A DNA stretch of 64,000 nucleotides from positions 22,479,933-22,543,932 of the forward strand of contig NC_057723.1 of the NCBI RefSeq assembly GCF_004010195.1. The letters are read 5' to 3'. The DNA is from Chiloscyllium plagiosum (Eukaryota). Both the position numbers and the translations under genes were made by a program. Shown here in pieces: positions 1,530 to 35,944 of the stretch. The number at the start of each line of letters is the position of its first letter. Within the stretch, counting starts at the first letter, position 1. The notes beneath the pieces were generated by a model. The model worked only from the letters and a program-made list of their open reading frames with translations, was not told the DNA's origin and ran no database searches.

Positions 1530-2640
<1,111 letters not shown>

Positions 2641-3581
2641 TTGCCAAATAGAGTTTAAGGAGCCTGGATTCCTCTCTCACCCCCCCCCCCCCCCCAAATA
2701 GATGGTGACAGTGAGCCTTTATTTTGCCTCTTCTCCATCGCAGACTTCACTTTCTGGTTGTCACTTGTTTTGGTTGCAAAGAAATCGCTCATCTGTTTAT
2801 GATGAGTGATGACCGTGTCAACAATTGTCTCTACTCTTGGAGAGAAACACTTTTTTTTATTCATCCTGGGATGTAAGCATCACTGGCCAGGCCATCATCT
2901 ATTCCCCATCCTGAATTGGCCTGTTGTTGTACATGTGGTGTAGATATATCTGTACAGTGTTGTGAGGAAGGAGATTCCAGAAGTTGACCCTGTGATAGTG
3001 ATGGAATGGCAATGTTGGGCTGAGTCAAGGTGTATGTGAATTGGTAAGGATCAGCAGTTGAACAACTTAATATTTGTCCACAACAAAACAGAAATTGCCG
3101 AGAAACTGAAGTCTTGTAGTACCAGTGGAGAGAAAGCAGAGTCAGGGTTTGAGTCCAGGGAGCATTCGTCAGAAATAGTTTCAGATTTCCAGCATCCACA
3201 GTTCTTGGTTTTACTTTAATATTCATCAAAATGTTTGTCATAATGTTCAGTAGCAACTTTCAATGTATTTTCAAGTTAAATTTAGTGTTGTTGAAGAAGT
3301 CACGTTTTGTTGAACCTTTTCACCTTGCATTCACCAGGACAACTTTCAAGAATAACAATTTGAGGGGAAGCCAACATTAATAGTGTACAAGGGGGATGTG
3401 CGAGGTTGGCAAGTAGTCTATGGTAGATGTGTTACATTGAGAATGCTCCTATTGCTGATTGACAGTTAACTGCCAAGCTTGTTTAAATGTTAAACTGGGT
3501 AGTTTGGCTCTGCCCTAAAAGTGAATCAGCAAGTAGGTTTCACCTATCTTGTTGTGTTAAACAAACACCGTGTTCTATCTG

Positions 3582-3779
3582 GTAAAAACAATGACTGCAG
3601 ATGCTGGAAACCAGATTCTGGATCAGCGGTGCTGGAAGAGCACAGCAATTCAGGCAGCATCCGAGGACAGGCAAAATCGACATTTCGGGCAAAAGAAGGG
3701 CTTTTGCCCGAAATGTCGATTTTGCCTGTCCTCGGATGCTGCCTGAATTGCTGTGCTCTTCCAGCACCACTGATCCAGA
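3582..3779. mobile_element. Short Penelope-terminus insertion forming an ~80-bp-arm hairpin, with 15-bp TSD
   Basis: Inverted repeat 3616-3780. TSD accgtgttctatctg at 3567-3581 and 3780-3794. Confidence 0.85.
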
Positions 3780-20511: not shown

Positions 20512-21328
20512 AGGATACATATAGGAGAGAAGATTTTAAACTGACTTGTGGAGACAAAGAGCTCAAAGTTTGGGAGATATCGTGGACCAAAGAGCAGAGT
20601 CCAGGCCACAGCGATTAATGTGGGATATGATAAACTGACTGTGAAAGGGAGGATTATGAATGTCAATGTAAATCAGCCAACAGATATATTCCTCCTTGCT
20701 GCCCCCTCTTGAATGGTATCCTGTACCATATTAGAACATGTTAGGATAAGGATGTTAGGATACTTTAAAGCTGAGATGAAGAAAATTTTCTCCTTGCTTA
20801 GAAAGCTGTGGAACTATTCAAAATAGAAGTGCATAGATTTTTGGCTGCTAAGGGGGTAAGGAAATATGAATAGTTTTAGCCAACTCAATTCCAGATTCTA
20901 ATCTTGAAAGTTGGAGCAGCCTCTAAGGACCAATAGTTTGTTCGAACTCCAATTTCTTGTGTTCTTATTGTGGTTTCAAAATCTAATTGTCACTTTCTTT
21001 TTTCTATTTATCTAGAAATGTAAGTTAAGTGTCAAGGACTTTGAATGCTTTTAACTGCCTGGATTGCTGTTTGTGAATGCTTCAGTGATTGCTTGCCTAC
21101 CTGCTTGTAGGCGTTACTTTTACTAAACGCCAAGAAATTTCCTTTTGTCATGGTGCCAGATTTAAATTGCCCCTCAGGAAAGGGAAAGGGAAAAAGAACA
21201 CACCATAGACTTTGTTAGCAGTCCATGTTTGAGGCAAGCAGTGAGTGCCTTCCTTCTCTGCTACCTCAAATTTTGGTCCTTGTTTTCTTTTCCTGTGTTG
21301 CTTAACCTGCTCAATTGTCTCCCAACAG

Positions 21329-21847
21329 CTCTCTGCACTTTGTTCTTGCCTGGATAGAATTTGGAAAGAAAATGACAATTGTGTAGTATTATTTTCATGG
21401 ATGCAGTTCTTAAAAGAAGAGACGCTCTCCTTTTTGCAAATTGAGTCTCCATTAGAAATCAAAAGAAACATTGAAGAGAATTCTGAAAATACTTTTTCTA
21501 ACAATAAGCATAATGAATTTGGATCAGAGGACAAACTGAAGAACTTGCAAGACTTTCCGCTTGACCCGAGAGCTATCCAGGATGTGGAGTCATGTGCTTG
21601 TGTTTTACGTGAAATTTTGGACTTTGATCAGAGTCAGAAACAAAAAGTCTTTAATGGCAAGATTTTCACCTGCAGTGTATGCTTTTGTGAAAAGCTGGGT
21701 ATTGACTGCATGCACTTTAAGGAGTGTAGCCATGTATATTGCAAGGCCTGTTTGAAAGAATACTTTGAGATACAAATCCGTGATGGGAATGTTCAGTGCC
21801 TTAATTGTCCTGAGCCAAAGTGTACTTCCATTGCCACACCTGCTCAA
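21329..21847 (+). CDS. RNF14: RNF14 coding exon 3 (RWD C-terminus and RING1)
   Basis: caacag acceptor. Encodes LSALCSCLDRIWKEN...LFSWMQFLKEETL...CSVCFCEKLGIDCMHFKECSHVYCKACLKEYFEIQIRDGNVQCLNCPEPKCTSIATPAQ. 519 nt, GTAAGC donor. Confidence 0.96.
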
Positions 21848-22845
21848 GTAAGCGTTTTTGAATTTTAAGCTTTATAATTACTTGCTGTTTAGTTTATTTC
21901 TACAGGATAAACACACTATCATACCAGCATGAAACTACTGTTTGTCAGGATGTTAATAAGTTACCCTAAAAATTGGCCAAACCGGACTAATCCACAGCTG
22001 CTCTAAAATTCATTGTGTGTTTATACTTCTTACACACGTTTCTAACTGTTGTATTCCAGCCATTATGCTTTATCTACACCGTCCATTATTGCGCACAAAA
22101 TCTTTTAAACTATGTCTTGAATTTGCACTTGATGGAATAAAAAGTTGGCTACAGATTGTTGGTATGAGAATTTGTGCTATTAAGTAATCCAATACAGAAC
22201 TACAAAGCGATTGTGAAAATAATCCTTAGTTACTAGGTGATAGGACAAATGGTTTCATGCCATACAGGACAAATAGTTTCATGTCATACAGAAAGCATGG
22301 TGGAAAAATATTGAAAATGTACAGTATATGGAGAGTTCTGGAATCTCCAGCATTGAGTGGGTGGCATGGGGAGTTTCCTGAGCATCGCATTTTCCAGAAT
22401 CAAATTGAAGTTCTTTTCTTGGTTTGTGAACAAGATTCTAGTAGCAGTCCTGTGCATTCATAGCTCAGTTCAGACTCAGTTTTTCCTGGTTTGCTTGTTT
22501 AACGTTTTTTGATACCACTTCTCATTAACTACACTTTTTTTTTTTCTCCCTCATTTTCAAGCTTAATTCTTAATTTTTCTGCAATTATTAGTTTAAATTT
22601 ACCCCTTCACTCACCTATTTGCCTTCTCTGTAAGGATAATAGAAAGGTGTCATTTAATTTCAGGTGACAATCATCTTTTCTTGAATGGACATATTGTGTG
22701 TCAAACAATGTCTGTGTGGCAAAGCCATGAGAATATCAATCTTTCCTATGTTTGACCAGCTCTGGAGCCAGTGTTGACTTTTCTAATCTTCTTTTCCTTA
22801 ACTTGCCCATGGTCTAAGGAACAGTCAAGAGATTGTCACCCTTGA

Positions 22846-28478: not shown

Positions 28479-28872
28479 CCCTTAGTTATCCCATTTTCTG
28501 CATTTATCACCATTTACCAAGTACTGAATGAAAGAGTAGATCAGGCTACAAAGAAGAATGTGTTTTATTCTACCACGATGAAACACTGCCACTCTGCCAC
28601 AAATCTGCCTGATTGTTACAATTGTATTGGAATACTAGCAGTATGATTGACAATGTGTGTATTTTGAATTACTGATTAACACATTCAAAATTTCATTTTA
28701 GCAGAATTTTTAAATAACTAGACAAATAATCTGGTCTAGAAAATGATGGGAAATTAATATCTACTTCAGAAGTTCTCTAAATTGAGAAAATAAAAAATGA
28801 AATTTGTCCATTAGATTCAGTTGAATTTCTGGAGTTTAAATTTTAGCATTTGAAAGTATTGCATCATTACAG

Positions 28873-29101
28873 GTAAAAGATCTCGTCAGTGAGGAGATAT
28901 TTGCACGGTATGACCGCCTTCTCCTTCAGTCTACATTGGATCTAATGACAGATGTAGTATATTGCCCTCGTACTGTTTGCAAGTCAGTGGTGATGCTTGA
29001 GCCTGGAAACACCATGGGCGTCTGTCCAGGATGTCGTTATGCTTTTTGTGCATTATGTGAAATGGCTTATCATGGAATTTCTCCATGCAGATTAAAAGCA
29101 G
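28873..29101 (+). CDS. RNF14: RNF14 coding exon 4 (IBR domain)
   Basis: ttacag acceptor. Encodes VKDLVSEEIFARYDRLLLQSTLDLMTDVVYCPRTVC...CPGCRYAFCALCEMAYHGISPCRLKA. 229 nt, GTAAGC donor. Confidence 0.96.
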
Positions 29102-29818
29102 GTAAGCAGTATTTTCACATGATTTTATCTTTTAAGTAATTGTTATGTTGCACTTTTGGAACTCCACGTTCATTTGGATTAAAATGTGAACACTCACTGA
29201 TTTGAAAATGTTTTAAGGGATGAATGGTGATTTATGTGCTCAAAGGACAGTTGAGGTGTATTTTGTCACTAATCTAGTGATCCAGACTAATGCTCTTGGA
29301 ATATGGGTTTGAATGCCAGCATGGTGAATGATGAAATTTCAATGAAAATCTGGTCATTGAAGCTAGCCTAGTGGTGATCATTTAACAGTTGTTGTAAAAA
29401 TCCATCTGATTAACTAATATGCATTCAGGAAAGAAATCTGTCCTACATGTGTGTCCAGACTGACAGTGATCTTGTTGACTCTTAAACAGCTCTCTGGAAT
29501 GGTTCTATGGGTTGTGGGGATGGGTTGTGTAAAAGGTAAGTCTTTGATCAGCTGTAATTGCATCGATTGGTGTTAATGTCCTGATGGACTGAATGGCCTA
29601 CTCCTGTTCCAATGATGAGATCAGTGATACAAACAGTAAGTGTGAAAGTGCAGATGAGCTTTGATTTTACGAGTAGCACCATCTAAATTTGGTACGCTTG
29701 CCTTTATTTGTAATACATTGAGGTGTAGGAGTCGGGATGTCACGTTGCGGCCGTGCAGGACATTGTTAGGCCACTTTTGGAATATTGCGTTCAGTTCTGG
29801 TCTCCCCGCTATAGGAAA

Positions 29819-30603: not shown

Positions 30604-31079
30604 GGCAGGGGTCAGTTCTGTTGTGTACAGTGCAGACAGAGCCCAAGCTTCAGGAGATGCAGGGATCAGTGTGGTTCCTGCAAGGTCGTAGGGGTCCAGT
30701 GCAATGAAATGTGCTCCCAAGATAGAGTGCATATTTATGGGGCTACGTATGGCCATCAGTTTTCATTTGGCCATCTTCGTGTTTACCTTTGCAAATTCCA
30801 ACCAGAGAATTTTCGGGATCAAATCGAATGCCATTTTAATGCATTCTTTGCTGCTTCTGCTTTCACTCTGCTGTCAAATGTAACAAAACCAACTGCCTGT
30901 TTGGATGTTAGCTTGATCAGTGAATCATCATATCCCTTAAATAGTCGAAAGAAAAGGTAAAGCTCACGTGGTTTATTATTCAGGGGAATGCCACTGACAA
31001 AAAGCATGCATACTTCCTCTTCATTGTTGATAGCTTCGTCACTTTTCATGTTCATGACTGGGGAGCTGATTGAATCCAT
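30604..31079 (-). pseudogene. RBPMS2: Processed (intronless), 3'-truncated RBPMS2 retrocopy inside the ERV-like element
   Basis: Reads [73 protein letters not shown] / NGIRFDPEN / LEFAKVNTKMAK*KLMA...[46 protein letters not shown] and LYTTELTP are RBPMS2-specific versus RBPMS. It is contiguous where the parent gene has introns, and carries two frameshifts and a stop. Confidence 0.93.
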
Positions 31080-31419
31080 TGTGTCCCCTTGCTCTGGGCA
31101 AGCGGTGCTGGTACTGGGAGAGCAGGATGGGTGTGATACGTTCCAGGCTCAATTGTCTATCAGAAGCACTGAGCAAGGTTCCCAGAATGTGACTTGGTGC
31201 AGAGTGCACAATGGGTAATATTTCCAGGGGTCTGGGTGAGTGGAGTGGACTTGGATCAGATGTGGAGGGGCGGACGGTGGTCCGAAAGTGTGCTTTACCT
31301 GTGAATGCAGAAATCTCAGAGACTATGTTAGCTGCTGAAAGTATCTTTGCATTTCCTCTCTCTTTCCCTCCTTGCCAAAGTAGGTATCAGTATGAAGACA
31401 GTCAATAAGCATTAGTAAC

Positions 31420-32361
31420 AAAGCATCAAGTACATACACTGGCAAACTGGAGTGATCCAGAGGCCTTTTGACAGAGTGCGAACACCCATGCGTCTTCCAT
31501 ATTTGTTTTTCTGGGTCAGGGTATCCCCCTGTAAACGCTGCACAGAAACAGTGTATGGTGTGCTAGTTGTTTGCAAGGCAGGTGATCTATTTAGTGTCTG
31601 CCAGTTCACAGAGGACACAATAGAATTGCAAGCTGTTGCTGCGTCTTAGGAAGCTCGATCGGCTCTGGCATTGCCATTGCTGATGTCTGTATTGTCCATT
31701 ACATAGGCAGCACATATGATTCTGGCCAATTGCTCGGGGAGGAGGAGACTTTGAGGATATTTTAGACACAGTGAGTTCTGACTAGGTGCCTCAGAGGAGG
31801 TCAGAAATCCACATTGTAACCCTAGCTGGTCATTGGTGGTGTTACTTTGAACGTTATTGGCAGACCAGACATGTCAGGAGGTACCTCCATTTTATTCCCA
31901 CCTGATAGTCCAGTTTGACATTTCAACCCTGATTCCTTATTTTGCTTCTCCTTGCTCAGTTTTTCCTGTTTTTCTCTACTTATATCATAATCCTTACGCT
32001 GACTCTTCAGCACCTCCCCAAGACTAAGTGTTTCCCTCATGATCATACACTCTAATCCCTCCTTTAATGAGTATTATTCTCCCAGCTGGTCTGTTTAAAT
32101 TTATTTGTTATTTCCTCAACCTTTCTCCACACTGATACTAAAGTTTTCCATTTAGTCCCTGTATTACGTTTCCAAATTGCCGCCTCTGCTTTTAAACATT
32201 TATCTATGTCCCAAGTTCCTCGTATCAGCCAAATTTCATTTCCCAATTTTTTTATTTAAACATCCTGACGGACGCCTGAACCTTTCCTTATTTTGAGGGT
32301 CATTCCGGCATAACTGTTGCAAAGGGGCTCCAACACCTGATTTATCCAATGTCTGTCCCAT
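31420..32361 (-). pseudogene. Degraded retroviral gag (matrix region clearest)
   Basis: ATG at 32361 gives MGQTLDKSGVGAPLQQLCRNDPQNKERF..., then after a frameshift GNEIWLIRGTWDIDKCLKAEAAIW... It has the Met-Gly myristoylation-type start and a WxxxGTWD motif like the class I matrix WPxxGT(F/W)D. The downstream part is only weakly assignable. Confidence 0.65.
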
Positions 32362-32790
32362 ATTTTTTAGTCTCAACTTCCAAACTTCTCTCTATGTACT
32401 AGTTCAGTGTCCTCAGTCTCCACATGCACTTCAGGGTAGGGTATTTCCCCTCTTAAAAACTGGTCGAAGGCAGGGTGATTGAGACAGACACAGTAGTTAT
32501 CCTTTATATTATGTACTATGTTCCGGAGCCTCAAACCCCACTGTTACAAGACTCTAACCTCCAAATTCCAGGGGGACTTTAACCTCCCTGGAAGAAACTC
32601 ATTGGCATACAAGTACATACATTATCTCAGAGATGCTGTCACTACAGAGTCCTGGAGAACGAGGGGTCAACTGAGTGAGATAGGTTAGTGAGCGAGATCA
32701 ACATAAATCCTACCTAGTTGGCTCATCCATCTCACGTTGCTGTCACACAGGCAATCACTTACTCAGTCTGCCTAGAAGCTTCATATATGT

Positions 32791-32812
32791 TGGAATCTGA
32801 CTCTCATCGCCA
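32791..32812 (-). promoter_or_regulatory. Primer binding site, degenerate, resembling the complement of the tRNA-Ser(GCU) 3' end
   Basis: TGGCGATGAGAGTCAGATTCCA lies two nt inside the 5' LTR. The recalled complement of tRNA-Ser(GCU) is TGGCGACGAGGATGGGATTCGA. The tRNA identity is tentative. Confidence 0.65.
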
Positions 32813-32814
32813 AA

Positions 32815-33217
32815 TGTTAGGTTCCCTTCTTGAGATTCTTGCACGCTTGATGCAGCTGCAATATGTCAACTTCTGTGACCAGCCACAATTTGTTCAAGCA
32901 AAGTACAAACTTTTGGAGGATCACTTAACACTTGGCGATGTTTATGGAGCATGTCAAGCGAGGCTCTCTGAACAAGGGAACTGCCCTCCCTTTATACAGG
33001 ACTTTACATCAGTCAGTTATGCATGCAAGACACAACCCCTTGCCACTCTGCTATAGTCACATGCCACCCAAAAACAATATAAAATGATTAGAGTATTTCC
33101 AGAAACAATGCGTGATTAGGTTATTCCTTAAACTGTAGCATTTAGAGTATGATTAGATTGTCACATCCTGTCTGCAAGATAGAAAAACACACCCCCTGGG
33201 ACATTCAATTTCTTAAA
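32815..33217 (-). repeat. 5' LTR of the ERV-like element (outer boundary 33217 or up to ~33250)
   Basis: Aligns by eye to 29819-30276, sharing gtcaacttctgtga, aagtacaaacttttggag and ggagcatgtcaagcgaggctctc. TATAAA at 32996-32991. Followed on minus by the PBS. Confidence 0.85.
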
Positions 33218-35944
33218 TGTCAGCAGAACAAATTAGCCCTTTAACATCTCAGAAGGATGTTGTGAAACTTGAAAGGGTTCAGAAAAGATTTACAAGCATG
33301 TTGCCAGTGTTGCAGGGTTTGAGAGATGGGGAGAGGCTGAACAGCCAGGCTATTTTTCCTAGTGCATTAGAGGCTGAGGGGGTGACCTTATAGAGGTTTA
33401 TAAAATCATGAGGGGTATAGATAGGGTGAATATTCAGTTATTTTTCCAGAGTGGGGGAGTCCAAAATTAGAGGGTATATTTGTAAGGTAAGAGGGGAAAG
33501 ATTTAAAAGGGTGGTATGTGTATGGAATGAGCCTCAGAGGAAGTGGTGGGGGCGGATACAATTGGAACATTTAACAGATGAATGAATAGGAAGGTGGTTT
33601 AGAGGAATATGGGCCAAATGTTAGCAAGTGGGATTAGATTAATGTGCAGTATCTGGTCAGCGTGGATGAGTTGGATCAAAGGGTCTGTTTATGTGCTGTA
33701 CAGTTCTGACTCTAAATTGTACAACTCTCATTTCCCATACAAAAATGTACTGAATGCATTCACTGAAAATTAGTGTCTACAAAATCCACATGATTTAAAC
33801 TTATTACATGACAAAATGAACTTGTCAACTAAATAAGTTAATGATTATTTTTAAAGTAATCATGATAGTGATTATAATTAAGATGTATCCCAGAATTTTG
33901 ATCTGGAGATTGATGGAGGGGGGAAGAAATGGAACAAAATTAGTAGTTACATGATGAAAGGTGGGTTGATTTTAGAAAGTTAGTATGGATTTCTGTACCA
34001 TTCAACTTGAACTCCACTATCCAGAATTACTGAGATAAATAAGAGTAACAGATAAGCTGTGGTCAGATATCCCAGACCATGTCAAATACCAGGTTCTAAG
34101 CATCCCACCCCACATGTCAGTGACACGACAGGCTAACAAATCTCATTAGAATTCCTTGTAAAAGAGATAAGTTTTAATACTTCATTTTTGAAGACCTAAC
34201 CTTGATACTTCCTTAATGCTGCTGTCACAGACTATCTGAACAACTGCTTACCTCCCACTGATCCTTTTCCTGAAGCAGTGCTTCCATGGATTGTTAAGGC
34301 TACACTTTAGCGCCTACTCACTGCATGAATTCAGCTATTTTGTAGTCAGCTGTCTTCACTTAGCTGGCTCCTCTGTTTTTGTGAACCTCAATTTGTCTCT
34401 GGTGCACTAAGCATATATTGCTTGTGGGCCTCCTTCGCTCCAATTCTCAGCCACAAAATAGCCTCTGGAACTTCAGTGAGCCCTAGCTCCCCAACCAATG
34501 TCTATACTGTTTCTGTAATAGAGAGCATTTTCCCTAAACAGAGCTAGCGACCTTCCACTCCAGCCTTAGCTACTCAGAACTTCTCAAGTCCTGACAACCT
34601 GGATACTGGTAATAACAGCATCTCTGCTGCCTGGAGGCTCTTCCTTCCAAGCACTTGTCTGACCAGTATTCTGAAGGTAGTAACTTTTATGATTCAATTG
34701 TCTCTGGCCATCTTTGGGCTCTAGTTAACTTCCCTTTCGTGTCATGTCTTTACTTTTGGCACAAAAAGGAGACCAATTTTGAAAAGGTTATTTATTTTAT
34801 AAATGGTGGGGTTGTTTCACTGTTTAAAAAATGATTAGAATGTGCACAGCTGGTCATGCTGCCACACTGCACATGCGCTAGCATTTGTAACCTAACCTGA
34901 AATGGTGTTCTAACTGGACCACAATGCAGCATTGCCCTGCTTGTCACTGCAGGCACCTTGGCCAATATGTGGTATAGGGTAAGGAAGATTTGTTAAGTTC
35001 ACTGACATCAATCCTCCTTTGTCTATGCAGTACCTAGAGCCTGTTTAATTCTGAATGGTGAGTTTAACAGAAGAAACACTCGTCTTTTTGAACAAGATGT
35101 TTTGTTGCATCAAAGGGATCCAACTGCTCTCCATGTTAACTTTGGTTATCCTCAGATATTGTCAAACCTGCTGCATTTCTCCAATAATTTCAATGTTTGT
35201 TTCAGATTTCCAGCATTCTTCATGTTTTGCCTTTATTCGAAGGTTAACGTATAACTCCCTGTTTCTACCAAAGACTGTGTGGCATCATCAGATTGAGTGG
35301 AGTTAATGTAGCTTCAACATTAATTCTTCCAGAACCATCTTCTTATGCAACACATTATGGAAGGAATGTTCATGATTCTTAACACAATATGGACAAAGTG
35401 AGATGTTCTGCTTCGGGCATGTTCACAATCCATATGCATGCTATGACAGGTTTTGATCTGGAATTACCGTTCAAGTTATTGCTTAAACTAACTGGGTTGC
35501 TCACAAATGTGAAATTTTCCTTGACACAGTGTACTCAGCCAATGCTTTTAAAAATAATTTATTTTGTTGCATTATATATTTAAGAAGTAACCTGGTTTCC
35601 ATTGTTCGGGGTGAAGGGATGAAATAATTCTGTTCCCAGTGGCTGTTAGGATTAAATGGAAAGTAGAAACTTATATCAACTTTCAGTCATCATTATCTTC
35701 ACTTGTAGAATTGTAGTATTGTGGAAATAGGTACAAAATGTTGGTTGTTATCTATTACTTAAACTGTTCAGTATTCCAATTGAAATTGATTTTTAGCCAC
35801 GCTGATTGAAATTTTATTTAAAAATTGGTTTTACTTATGATTCACGTACAAAAGTAAAATATGTTTAGGCCATGGAGCATTAAGCTGATTCTCTGATCAG
35901 CAGTGCAGTGGGGTGAATCTGGTCAAAAAGCATCATGCAAGAGA

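Follow-up and report, generated by a model that had tools for sequence, protein, structure and literature searches.

The window, the 64,000-nucleotide stretch of Chiloscyllium plagiosum DNA analysed here, contained a retroviral element on its minus strand, which extended from a 5' LTR (33251-32815) to a 3' LTR (30281-29819). The 5' LTR had TG...CA ends; across 300 aligned bases it differed from the 3' LTR by 12.7%, a difference indicating that the element is old. It was inserted into a LINE and flanked by a 4-bp target-site duplication (left copy at 33252-33255, partner at 29815-29818, one mismatch), and the empty LINE site was supported by reads that connect the left and right flanks of the element. 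The 18-nt primer-binding site (PBS), at 32795-32812 on the minus strand, is presumably of the tRNA-Ser type. The hallmarks of an endogenous retrovirus (ERV) were all present, namely paired LTRs, PBS, polypurine tract (PPT), and short target duplication. Exons of an RWD-RING-IBR gene, which we take to be RNF14-like, were observed at 21245-21865 and 28840-29136 on the plus strand, and the element lies antisense within an intron of this gene, after the IBR exon.

The interior of the element, also on the minus strand, began with a broken gag N-terminal remnant (32363-31833), followed by the RNase H end and an integrase N-terminal remnant (31832-31361). The integrase core was deleted at 31361/31360 in the window copy and is still present in locus L011. 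Downstream of this deletion, a block coding for the integrase linker (31360-31276) contained a branch-like GCTAAC (31332-31327), a pyrimidine tract, and an acceptor AG (31300-31299). It was followed by approximately 60 nt without a match to the sampled cargo-free relatives or to the host UTR (31275-31215) and by a reverse-transcriptase (RT) fragment lying out of genome order (31214-31125), which was connected through a short microhomology to the 76-nt RBPMS2 5' UTR (31131-31056). The cargo itself consisted of intronless RBPMS2 codons 1-153 (31055-30603), whose reading frame is interrupted at codons 73 and 83, and of a piece of the RBPMS2 3' UTR from the last host exon (30604-30448), which is reached via a lineage-specific deletion. 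A remnant of the env transmembrane/cytoplasmic tail together with the PPT (30458-30282) completed the interior. Judged by its sequence, the window element is a non-autonomous derivative of a class I (gamma/epsilon-like) ERV.

The original prediction placed the RBPMS2 cargo on an env-style spliced mRNA, and the signals on which it was based were all found in the window copy. The donor CTGA/GTAAGT (D1) was located at 32763/32762 on the minus strand, about 32 nt past the 18-nt PBS that starts at 32812, in agreement with the predicted distance of about 30 nt, and the branch-point-like GCTAAC at 31332-31327 preceded the acceptor TTTCTGCATTCACAG with its AG at 31300-31299. The stretch from 31298 to 31080 was free of ATG, and the ATG at 31079 was in frame with the ATG at 31055. 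The caveat attached to the prediction, that the leader contains ATGs, was also borne out, as exon 1 of the window copy had three between the TATA box and D1 (32762) and five ahead of a second donor, D2. In 2000 shuffles of 2-base tiles of 32812-31056, GTAAGT arose somewhere in 635 and fell within the first 100 nt in 50, while 99 contained a site with branch motif, pyrimidine tract, and YAG/G at any position; the real stretch contained two acceptor-like sites, at 31299 and 32652. The splice motifs by themselves are thus only modestly beyond chance, and it is homology that carries the support. A plain count of U1 matches in the window copy was equal for D1 and D2 (6/9 each). The acceptor-like site at 32652 on the minus strand, with branch motif, pyrimidine tract, and CAG/G, lies about 60 nt after D2.

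The element belongs to a large family. A search with the RRM gave 634 candidates, of which 150 were scored matches, and a 27-nt pattern for the acceptor matched at least 379 times; the copies were about 80% alike and 88-91% identical to the host coding sequence. At least three LTR/leader backbones carried one common cassette, composed of the acceptor block, the cargo, and the env tail. We studied 84 cargo loci in detail (27 + 37 + 20), with the cargo start inside the locus in 81; twenty of the 84 had been picked on the acceptor motif and were excluded from the acceptor counts, and loci L162 and L163 are possibly recent duplicates. Cargo-free, env-bearing relatives of the window element, hereafter helpers, encoded gag, protease, RT, RNase H, integrase, and env. 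Their integrase had an MLV-type C-terminal domain, and they gave a gamma-type TM match (E 0.001-0.004) that fell below the Pfam cut-off.

Comparison with the helpers identified the origin of the acceptor. The block at 31360-31276 matched them at 71-78% and codes for the linker that precedes integrase's C-terminal domain. The acceptor AG was found in 15 of 21 distinct aligned helper loci (28 examined, 5 short of the site, and 2 duplicates), and the env start of the helpers lay about 220-230 nt downstream of the site. Of the two sources considered in the original prediction, the env acceptor of the helper virus or the RBPMS2 5' UTR, the site belongs to the helper virus, as it lies in the helper integrase block, and its position suggests that it is likely the env acceptor of the parent virus. 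Host-derived sequence begins at 31131, a position 76 nt ahead of the native ATG, which leaves the acceptor 168 nt outside the host part. A weak local match of the acceptor to the RBPMS2 5' UTR (score 27) was discarded, since the block directly matches helper integrase.

The acceptor was also retained in sister copies, as the original prediction required. Among the 61 copies not chosen on the acceptor motif, 44 had the AG, and 36 had a branch-like motif situated about 30 nt before it. Silent-site identity was not raised at the acceptor in the comparison of third positions between two helper classes (0.60 for -39..-1, within a range of 0.39-0.88 along the preceding pol), so conservation of the site in the helpers could reflect protein constraint. 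Upstream of the acceptor, the deletion edge was at -105; downstream, the start codon was at +243 in the window copy, and among short-form copies the acceptor-to-ATG distance was 72 nt in 29 of 53 and 56-57 nt in three. Successive deletions thus approach the acceptor from both sides without removing it, a pattern that is suggestive but no proof, because apparent junk was also kept in most copies and retention by itself says little. Self-regulation of the acceptor by RBPMS2 through CAC clusters was considered and found no support, as CAC counts near the site were 4.4-5.2 and those of the helpers were alike (3.4-4.7).

The donor named in the original prediction fared differently. As an ancestral donor, D1 (32765-32757, minus strand, intron from 32762) was not supported by the ten env-bearing helpers, none of which had the GT and nine of which had A there. 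The GT was limited to the backbone of the window element, where 17 of 25 aligned loci had it together with a perfect intron-side match, and was absent from all ten second-backbone cargo copies. D2 (32716-32708, minus strand, first intron base 32713), though imperfect in the window copy, had its GT in 10/10 helpers, 20/27 window-backbone loci, 7/10 second-backbone loci, and 17/19 third-backbone loci; in the three groups, 5, 20, and 2 loci, respectively, did not include the leader or gave no leader match. Between the two, D2 is the better candidate for the inherited major donor, and D1 is a later gain that may have been used in one lineage. A 6-nt palindrome 5 nt before D2 was seen in the leaders of helpers and of cargo copies on all backbones (about 32719-32724 in the window, where it is degenerate), and it resembles a dimer-initiation loop beside a major donor. 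Conservation of D2 could stem from this adjacent palindrome, through packaging, rather than from splicing.

The order of the segments recorded how the cassette may have been assembled. Downstream of the acceptor came about 60 unmatched bases, about 90 nt of RT, and the RBPMS2 UTR with its short microhomology joint. In the four helpers showing both, the acceptor block was preceded by this RT stretch at a distance of 1.0-2.1 kb, and in no cargo locus did RT sequence extend further upstream than the fragment. The RT fragment being out of genome order with no RT upstream of it, the capture occurred at RT; the position of the acceptor block ahead of the RT fragment, against genome order, requires a second recombination or template switch, whether during the round of capture or afterwards, with the switch point within about 85 nt after the acceptor AG. 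In later deletions, the integrase core was lost, everything upstream of -105 was replaced by an AT-rich block, and the acceptor-to-ATG spacing was shortened from about 250 to 72 nt in the short form.

In most copies the acceptor block was preceded by the AT-rich block, which was about 860-970 nt long (oriented positions of about 3850-4820 in L115, G000:C3:63122963-63123933) and contained its own pyrimidine tract and CAG; when its source was searched for, all 40 scored matches were copies of the family. In the third backbone, the leader had about 1.5 kb of short tandem repeats (L115, oriented about 2080-3650), and the helper leader contains a few related repeats. At L109 (G000:C27:42881900-42888609), a third-backbone leader was inverted relative to a full-length cargo whose 3' LTR is of the window type; this locus was considered as a spliced copy and proved to be an inversion.

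The host RBPMS2 gene was located on G000:C40, where the exons matched the Chiloscyllium plagiosum protein P0001 at up to 100%. The cargo, after which the env tail begins, was composed of six host RBPMS2 exons joined together and one 3' UTR exon, and is thus an intronless cDNA in the env slot. Fusion of the cargo to the env transmembrane tail was dismissed, as host 3' UTR comes first after the cargo. The annotated last 48 residues of P0001 (G000:C40, about 25109259-25109402) matched LINE-like repeats many times regionally, so that this isoform tail looks repeat-derived.

Among 78 classified cargo copies, a sample enriched for the class of the window copy, six were full-length, 18 ended at codon 153, and 54 joined codon 73 to the C-terminus. 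The 18-copy class, to which the window copy belongs, jumps from codon 153 into the 3' UTR with the RRM intact, and the same junction was present in 9 of the 18, those in which it was found. Nineteen of the 20 motif-picked copies were of the codon-73 class; none was of the window's class, and none was full-length. With full-length copies in existence and the truncation confined to one derived minority lineage, an RRM with replaced C-terminus as the ancestral cargo, as had been supposed, is not supported. The codon-73 deletion preserved the frame in 30 of the 50 copies that could be measured and removed the end of the RRM, with the α2/β4 loop and β4, from the commonest lineage. In human RBPMS the α2/β4 loop is part of the dimer surface (accessible text of PMC4783296), and we mapped this loop onto the shark residues by inference; the first frame break of the window copy lies ahead of it.

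The cargo protein showed no sign of selection in N:S counts over the classified copies. Rare changes in the codon-73 class had an N:S of 433:145 against an expected 2.8:1, which is neutral, and the shared changes specific to the commonest lineage were about 8 N to 4 S by hand count. Changes common to all cargo classes were mostly silent and may be those of the host rather than of the element. Identity to the host was 91% for full-length copies and 89% and 88% for the other two classes. In place of the intact cargo ORFs under purifying selection known from crocodilian elements, neutral decay and lineage-wide deletions were observed. The dominant-negative role proposed for the product is not supported by these data, the commonest lineage being without the α2/β4 loop and β4 and its shared changes mostly non-synonymous. 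On present evidence the cargo protein was more likely a passenger.

The proposed start at ATG 31079 was not supported by the comparison either. The position is ACG in the host 5' UTR, and ACG, ATG, and ACA occurred in 18, 24, and 23 of 81 copies, respectively; this is the pattern of CpG decay, and the ATG is what has become of a CpG in the 5' UTR of the host gene. The ATG-free run from 31298 to 31080 is peculiar to the window copy: in 15 of 20 copies of the same internal layout an extra ATG, which the window copy lacks and which the short form deletes, was located 60-82 nt after the acceptor. Another ATG was found 13 nt before D2 in 23/27 window-backbone loci versus 4/19 third-backbone loci, so a spliced RNA of the window's lineage would have short upstream frames. 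Both kinds of upstream ATG would hamper translation. In helpers L173-L200, the leader ATG likewise lies 13 nt before D2, and after a splice from D2 its frame reads the integrase tail in env phase and stops a few codons ahead of the env start. An ALV-like leader ATG spliced into env was not supported on this account, as the phase fits but most helpers share the stop before the env start.

The junction reads that the original prediction expected, at 31298 to 32763, were not seen, nor were any at 31298 to 32714, among the joints and loose ends listed in a low-power mapping on 30960-32830 of three contig sets (RNA being a guess) and one RNA run, with 17 reads and tissue unrecorded. The listed joints were known DNA deletions, and the listed loose ends ran unspliced through the acceptor block, e.g. 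at 31318 and 31404. Among genomic copies, three junction patterns for a spliced retrocopy gave 0 matches versus at least 379 unspliced acceptor matches. Spliced retroviral RNAs usually lack the packaging signal, which makes the retrocopy test a weak one.

Taken together, we favor, with slightly better than even confidence, the reading that the family is a dead offshoot of a class I shark retrovirus with RBPMS2 behind the likely env acceptor, spliced most likely from 32713, and with the cargo probably a passenger. A full-length RBPMS2 cDNA was captured at RT, and a second template switch placed the acceptor-bearing part of pol ahead of the RT-cargo joint. An active copy would then have spliced D2 (32713), rather than 32762, to the helper acceptor, giving an env-style RNA with the cargo, which was afterwards cut by two different deletions. 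We infer that the splice sites were functional, that D2 served as donor, and that there was once a spliced RNA. Of the env-style layout originally proposed, the helper acceptor at the env-acceptor position of simple retroviruses and the cargo in the env slot stand, while D1, ATG 31079, the ancestral truncation, and the dominant negative are not supported. The main competitor to this reading, which we consider unlikely, is that the integrase block held no working acceptor in the cargo family, or that env uses another site, so that the block was passively carried and the cargo never spliced. It would account for reads and genomic copies without a junction, for silent sites without excess conservation, and for contig and read ends that pass unspliced through the block (31318, 31404), and the retention of about 860 nt of apparent junk in most copies fits it too; but the position of the block suits the env acceptor of simple retroviruses, 36 of 61 copies have the branch-like motif about 30 nt upstream, and the nested deletions end short of the acceptor on both sides.

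Selection could also have acted early, if full-length RBPMS2 was once expressed and helpful, which would be why an acceptor came back ahead of the RT joint, and later lineages lost the protein with the layout kept. The acceptor block out of genome order (RT 1.0-2.1 kb upstream in four helpers) and the template switch within about 85 nt past the AG would be expected from this, although one complex recombination yields the same order without selection. The six full-length copies are nearest to the host (91% versus 89% and 88%), yet they are rare, at 6/78 classified and 0/20 motif-picked copies, and the changes common to all classes are not assignable to the element over the host. The commonest deletion is in frame (30/50) and the short form drops the intervening ATG, but one deletion in three would be in frame by chance anyway, and we judge an early benefit improbable. 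Slightly more doubtful again is the specific version in which the acceptor, lost at the RT capture, was regained by the second recombination since a spliced oocyte RNA-granule protein aided germ-line entry, with hundreds of copies on three LTR families as the outcome. The least credible is the original prediction in full, with 32762 spliced to the acceptor and an RRM with replaced tail acting as a dominant negative or as an oocyte localizer of viral RNA. D1 does match perfectly on the intron side in 17/25 window-backbone loci, the C-terminal deletion is shared and spares the RRM, human RBPMS without its last 20 residues has no splicing activity while its RRM still dimerizes (accessible text of PMC10570038), and Rbpms2 is an oocyte RNA-binding protein (accessible text of PMC6049948). 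However, D1 is missing from helpers and other backbones, the lineage is a minority (0/20 motif-picked copies) with too small a number of shared changes to reveal selection, upstream ATGs are common, and the frame of the window copy is broken at codon 73, before the dimer-surface loop (PMC4783296).

The family can be regarded as a high-copy fossil, in a cartilaginous fish, of the classic layout of oncogene transduction, with an RNA-binding protein rather than a growth gene as cargo. Its copies also show where an extinct virus is likely to have had its splice sites, the deletions converging on one integrase block and the cross-backbone comparison favoring one donor over the other. If early selection for RBPMS2 expression were true, the family would be a case of a retroelement that exploits an oocyte protein of its host to spread in the germ line. 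In our literature search by title and abstract start, with subscription journals mostly outside its scope, no paper on this RBPMS2-carrying element was found.

For the acceptor, MLV serves as a positional model only, and the likeness rests on position: its leader donor is joined to an acceptor inside 3' pol, and the spliced env leader covers the integrase tail (accessible text of PMC5778647). The crocodilian elements CrocERV31 (nectin3) and CrocERV29 (KIT-ligand) are likewise ERVs with a host mRNA in or beside the env slot that were amplified, and their ORFs are under purifying selection, with six insertions in the nectin3 lineage; the word 'splice' does not occur in the accessible main text of that report (PMC4299795). 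The shark family differs from them: its acceptor pattern has at least 379 matches, it occurs on at least three LTR backbones, its cargo carries internal deletions, and selection is not evident. The closest known system is avian myeloblastosis virus (AMV), in which the env acceptor in 3' pol is kept upstream of the junction and expresses v-myb (accessible text of PMC2442608). In both, a host cDNA takes the place of env with an acceptor from 3' pol upstream of it, and AMV needs a helper, as the non-autonomous window element would have done. Unlike the window element, AMV is exogenous, its splicing is demonstrated, and its v-myb, joined to gag codons, is selected (PMC2442608). The cargo of the window element has its own 5' UTR and ATG, with the RT fragment between the acceptor and the cargo; by sequence comparison the AMV-type layout is real, splicing of the RBPMS2 cargo is deduced where that of v-myb was demonstrated, and a function for the cargo is unsupported where v-myb was selected.
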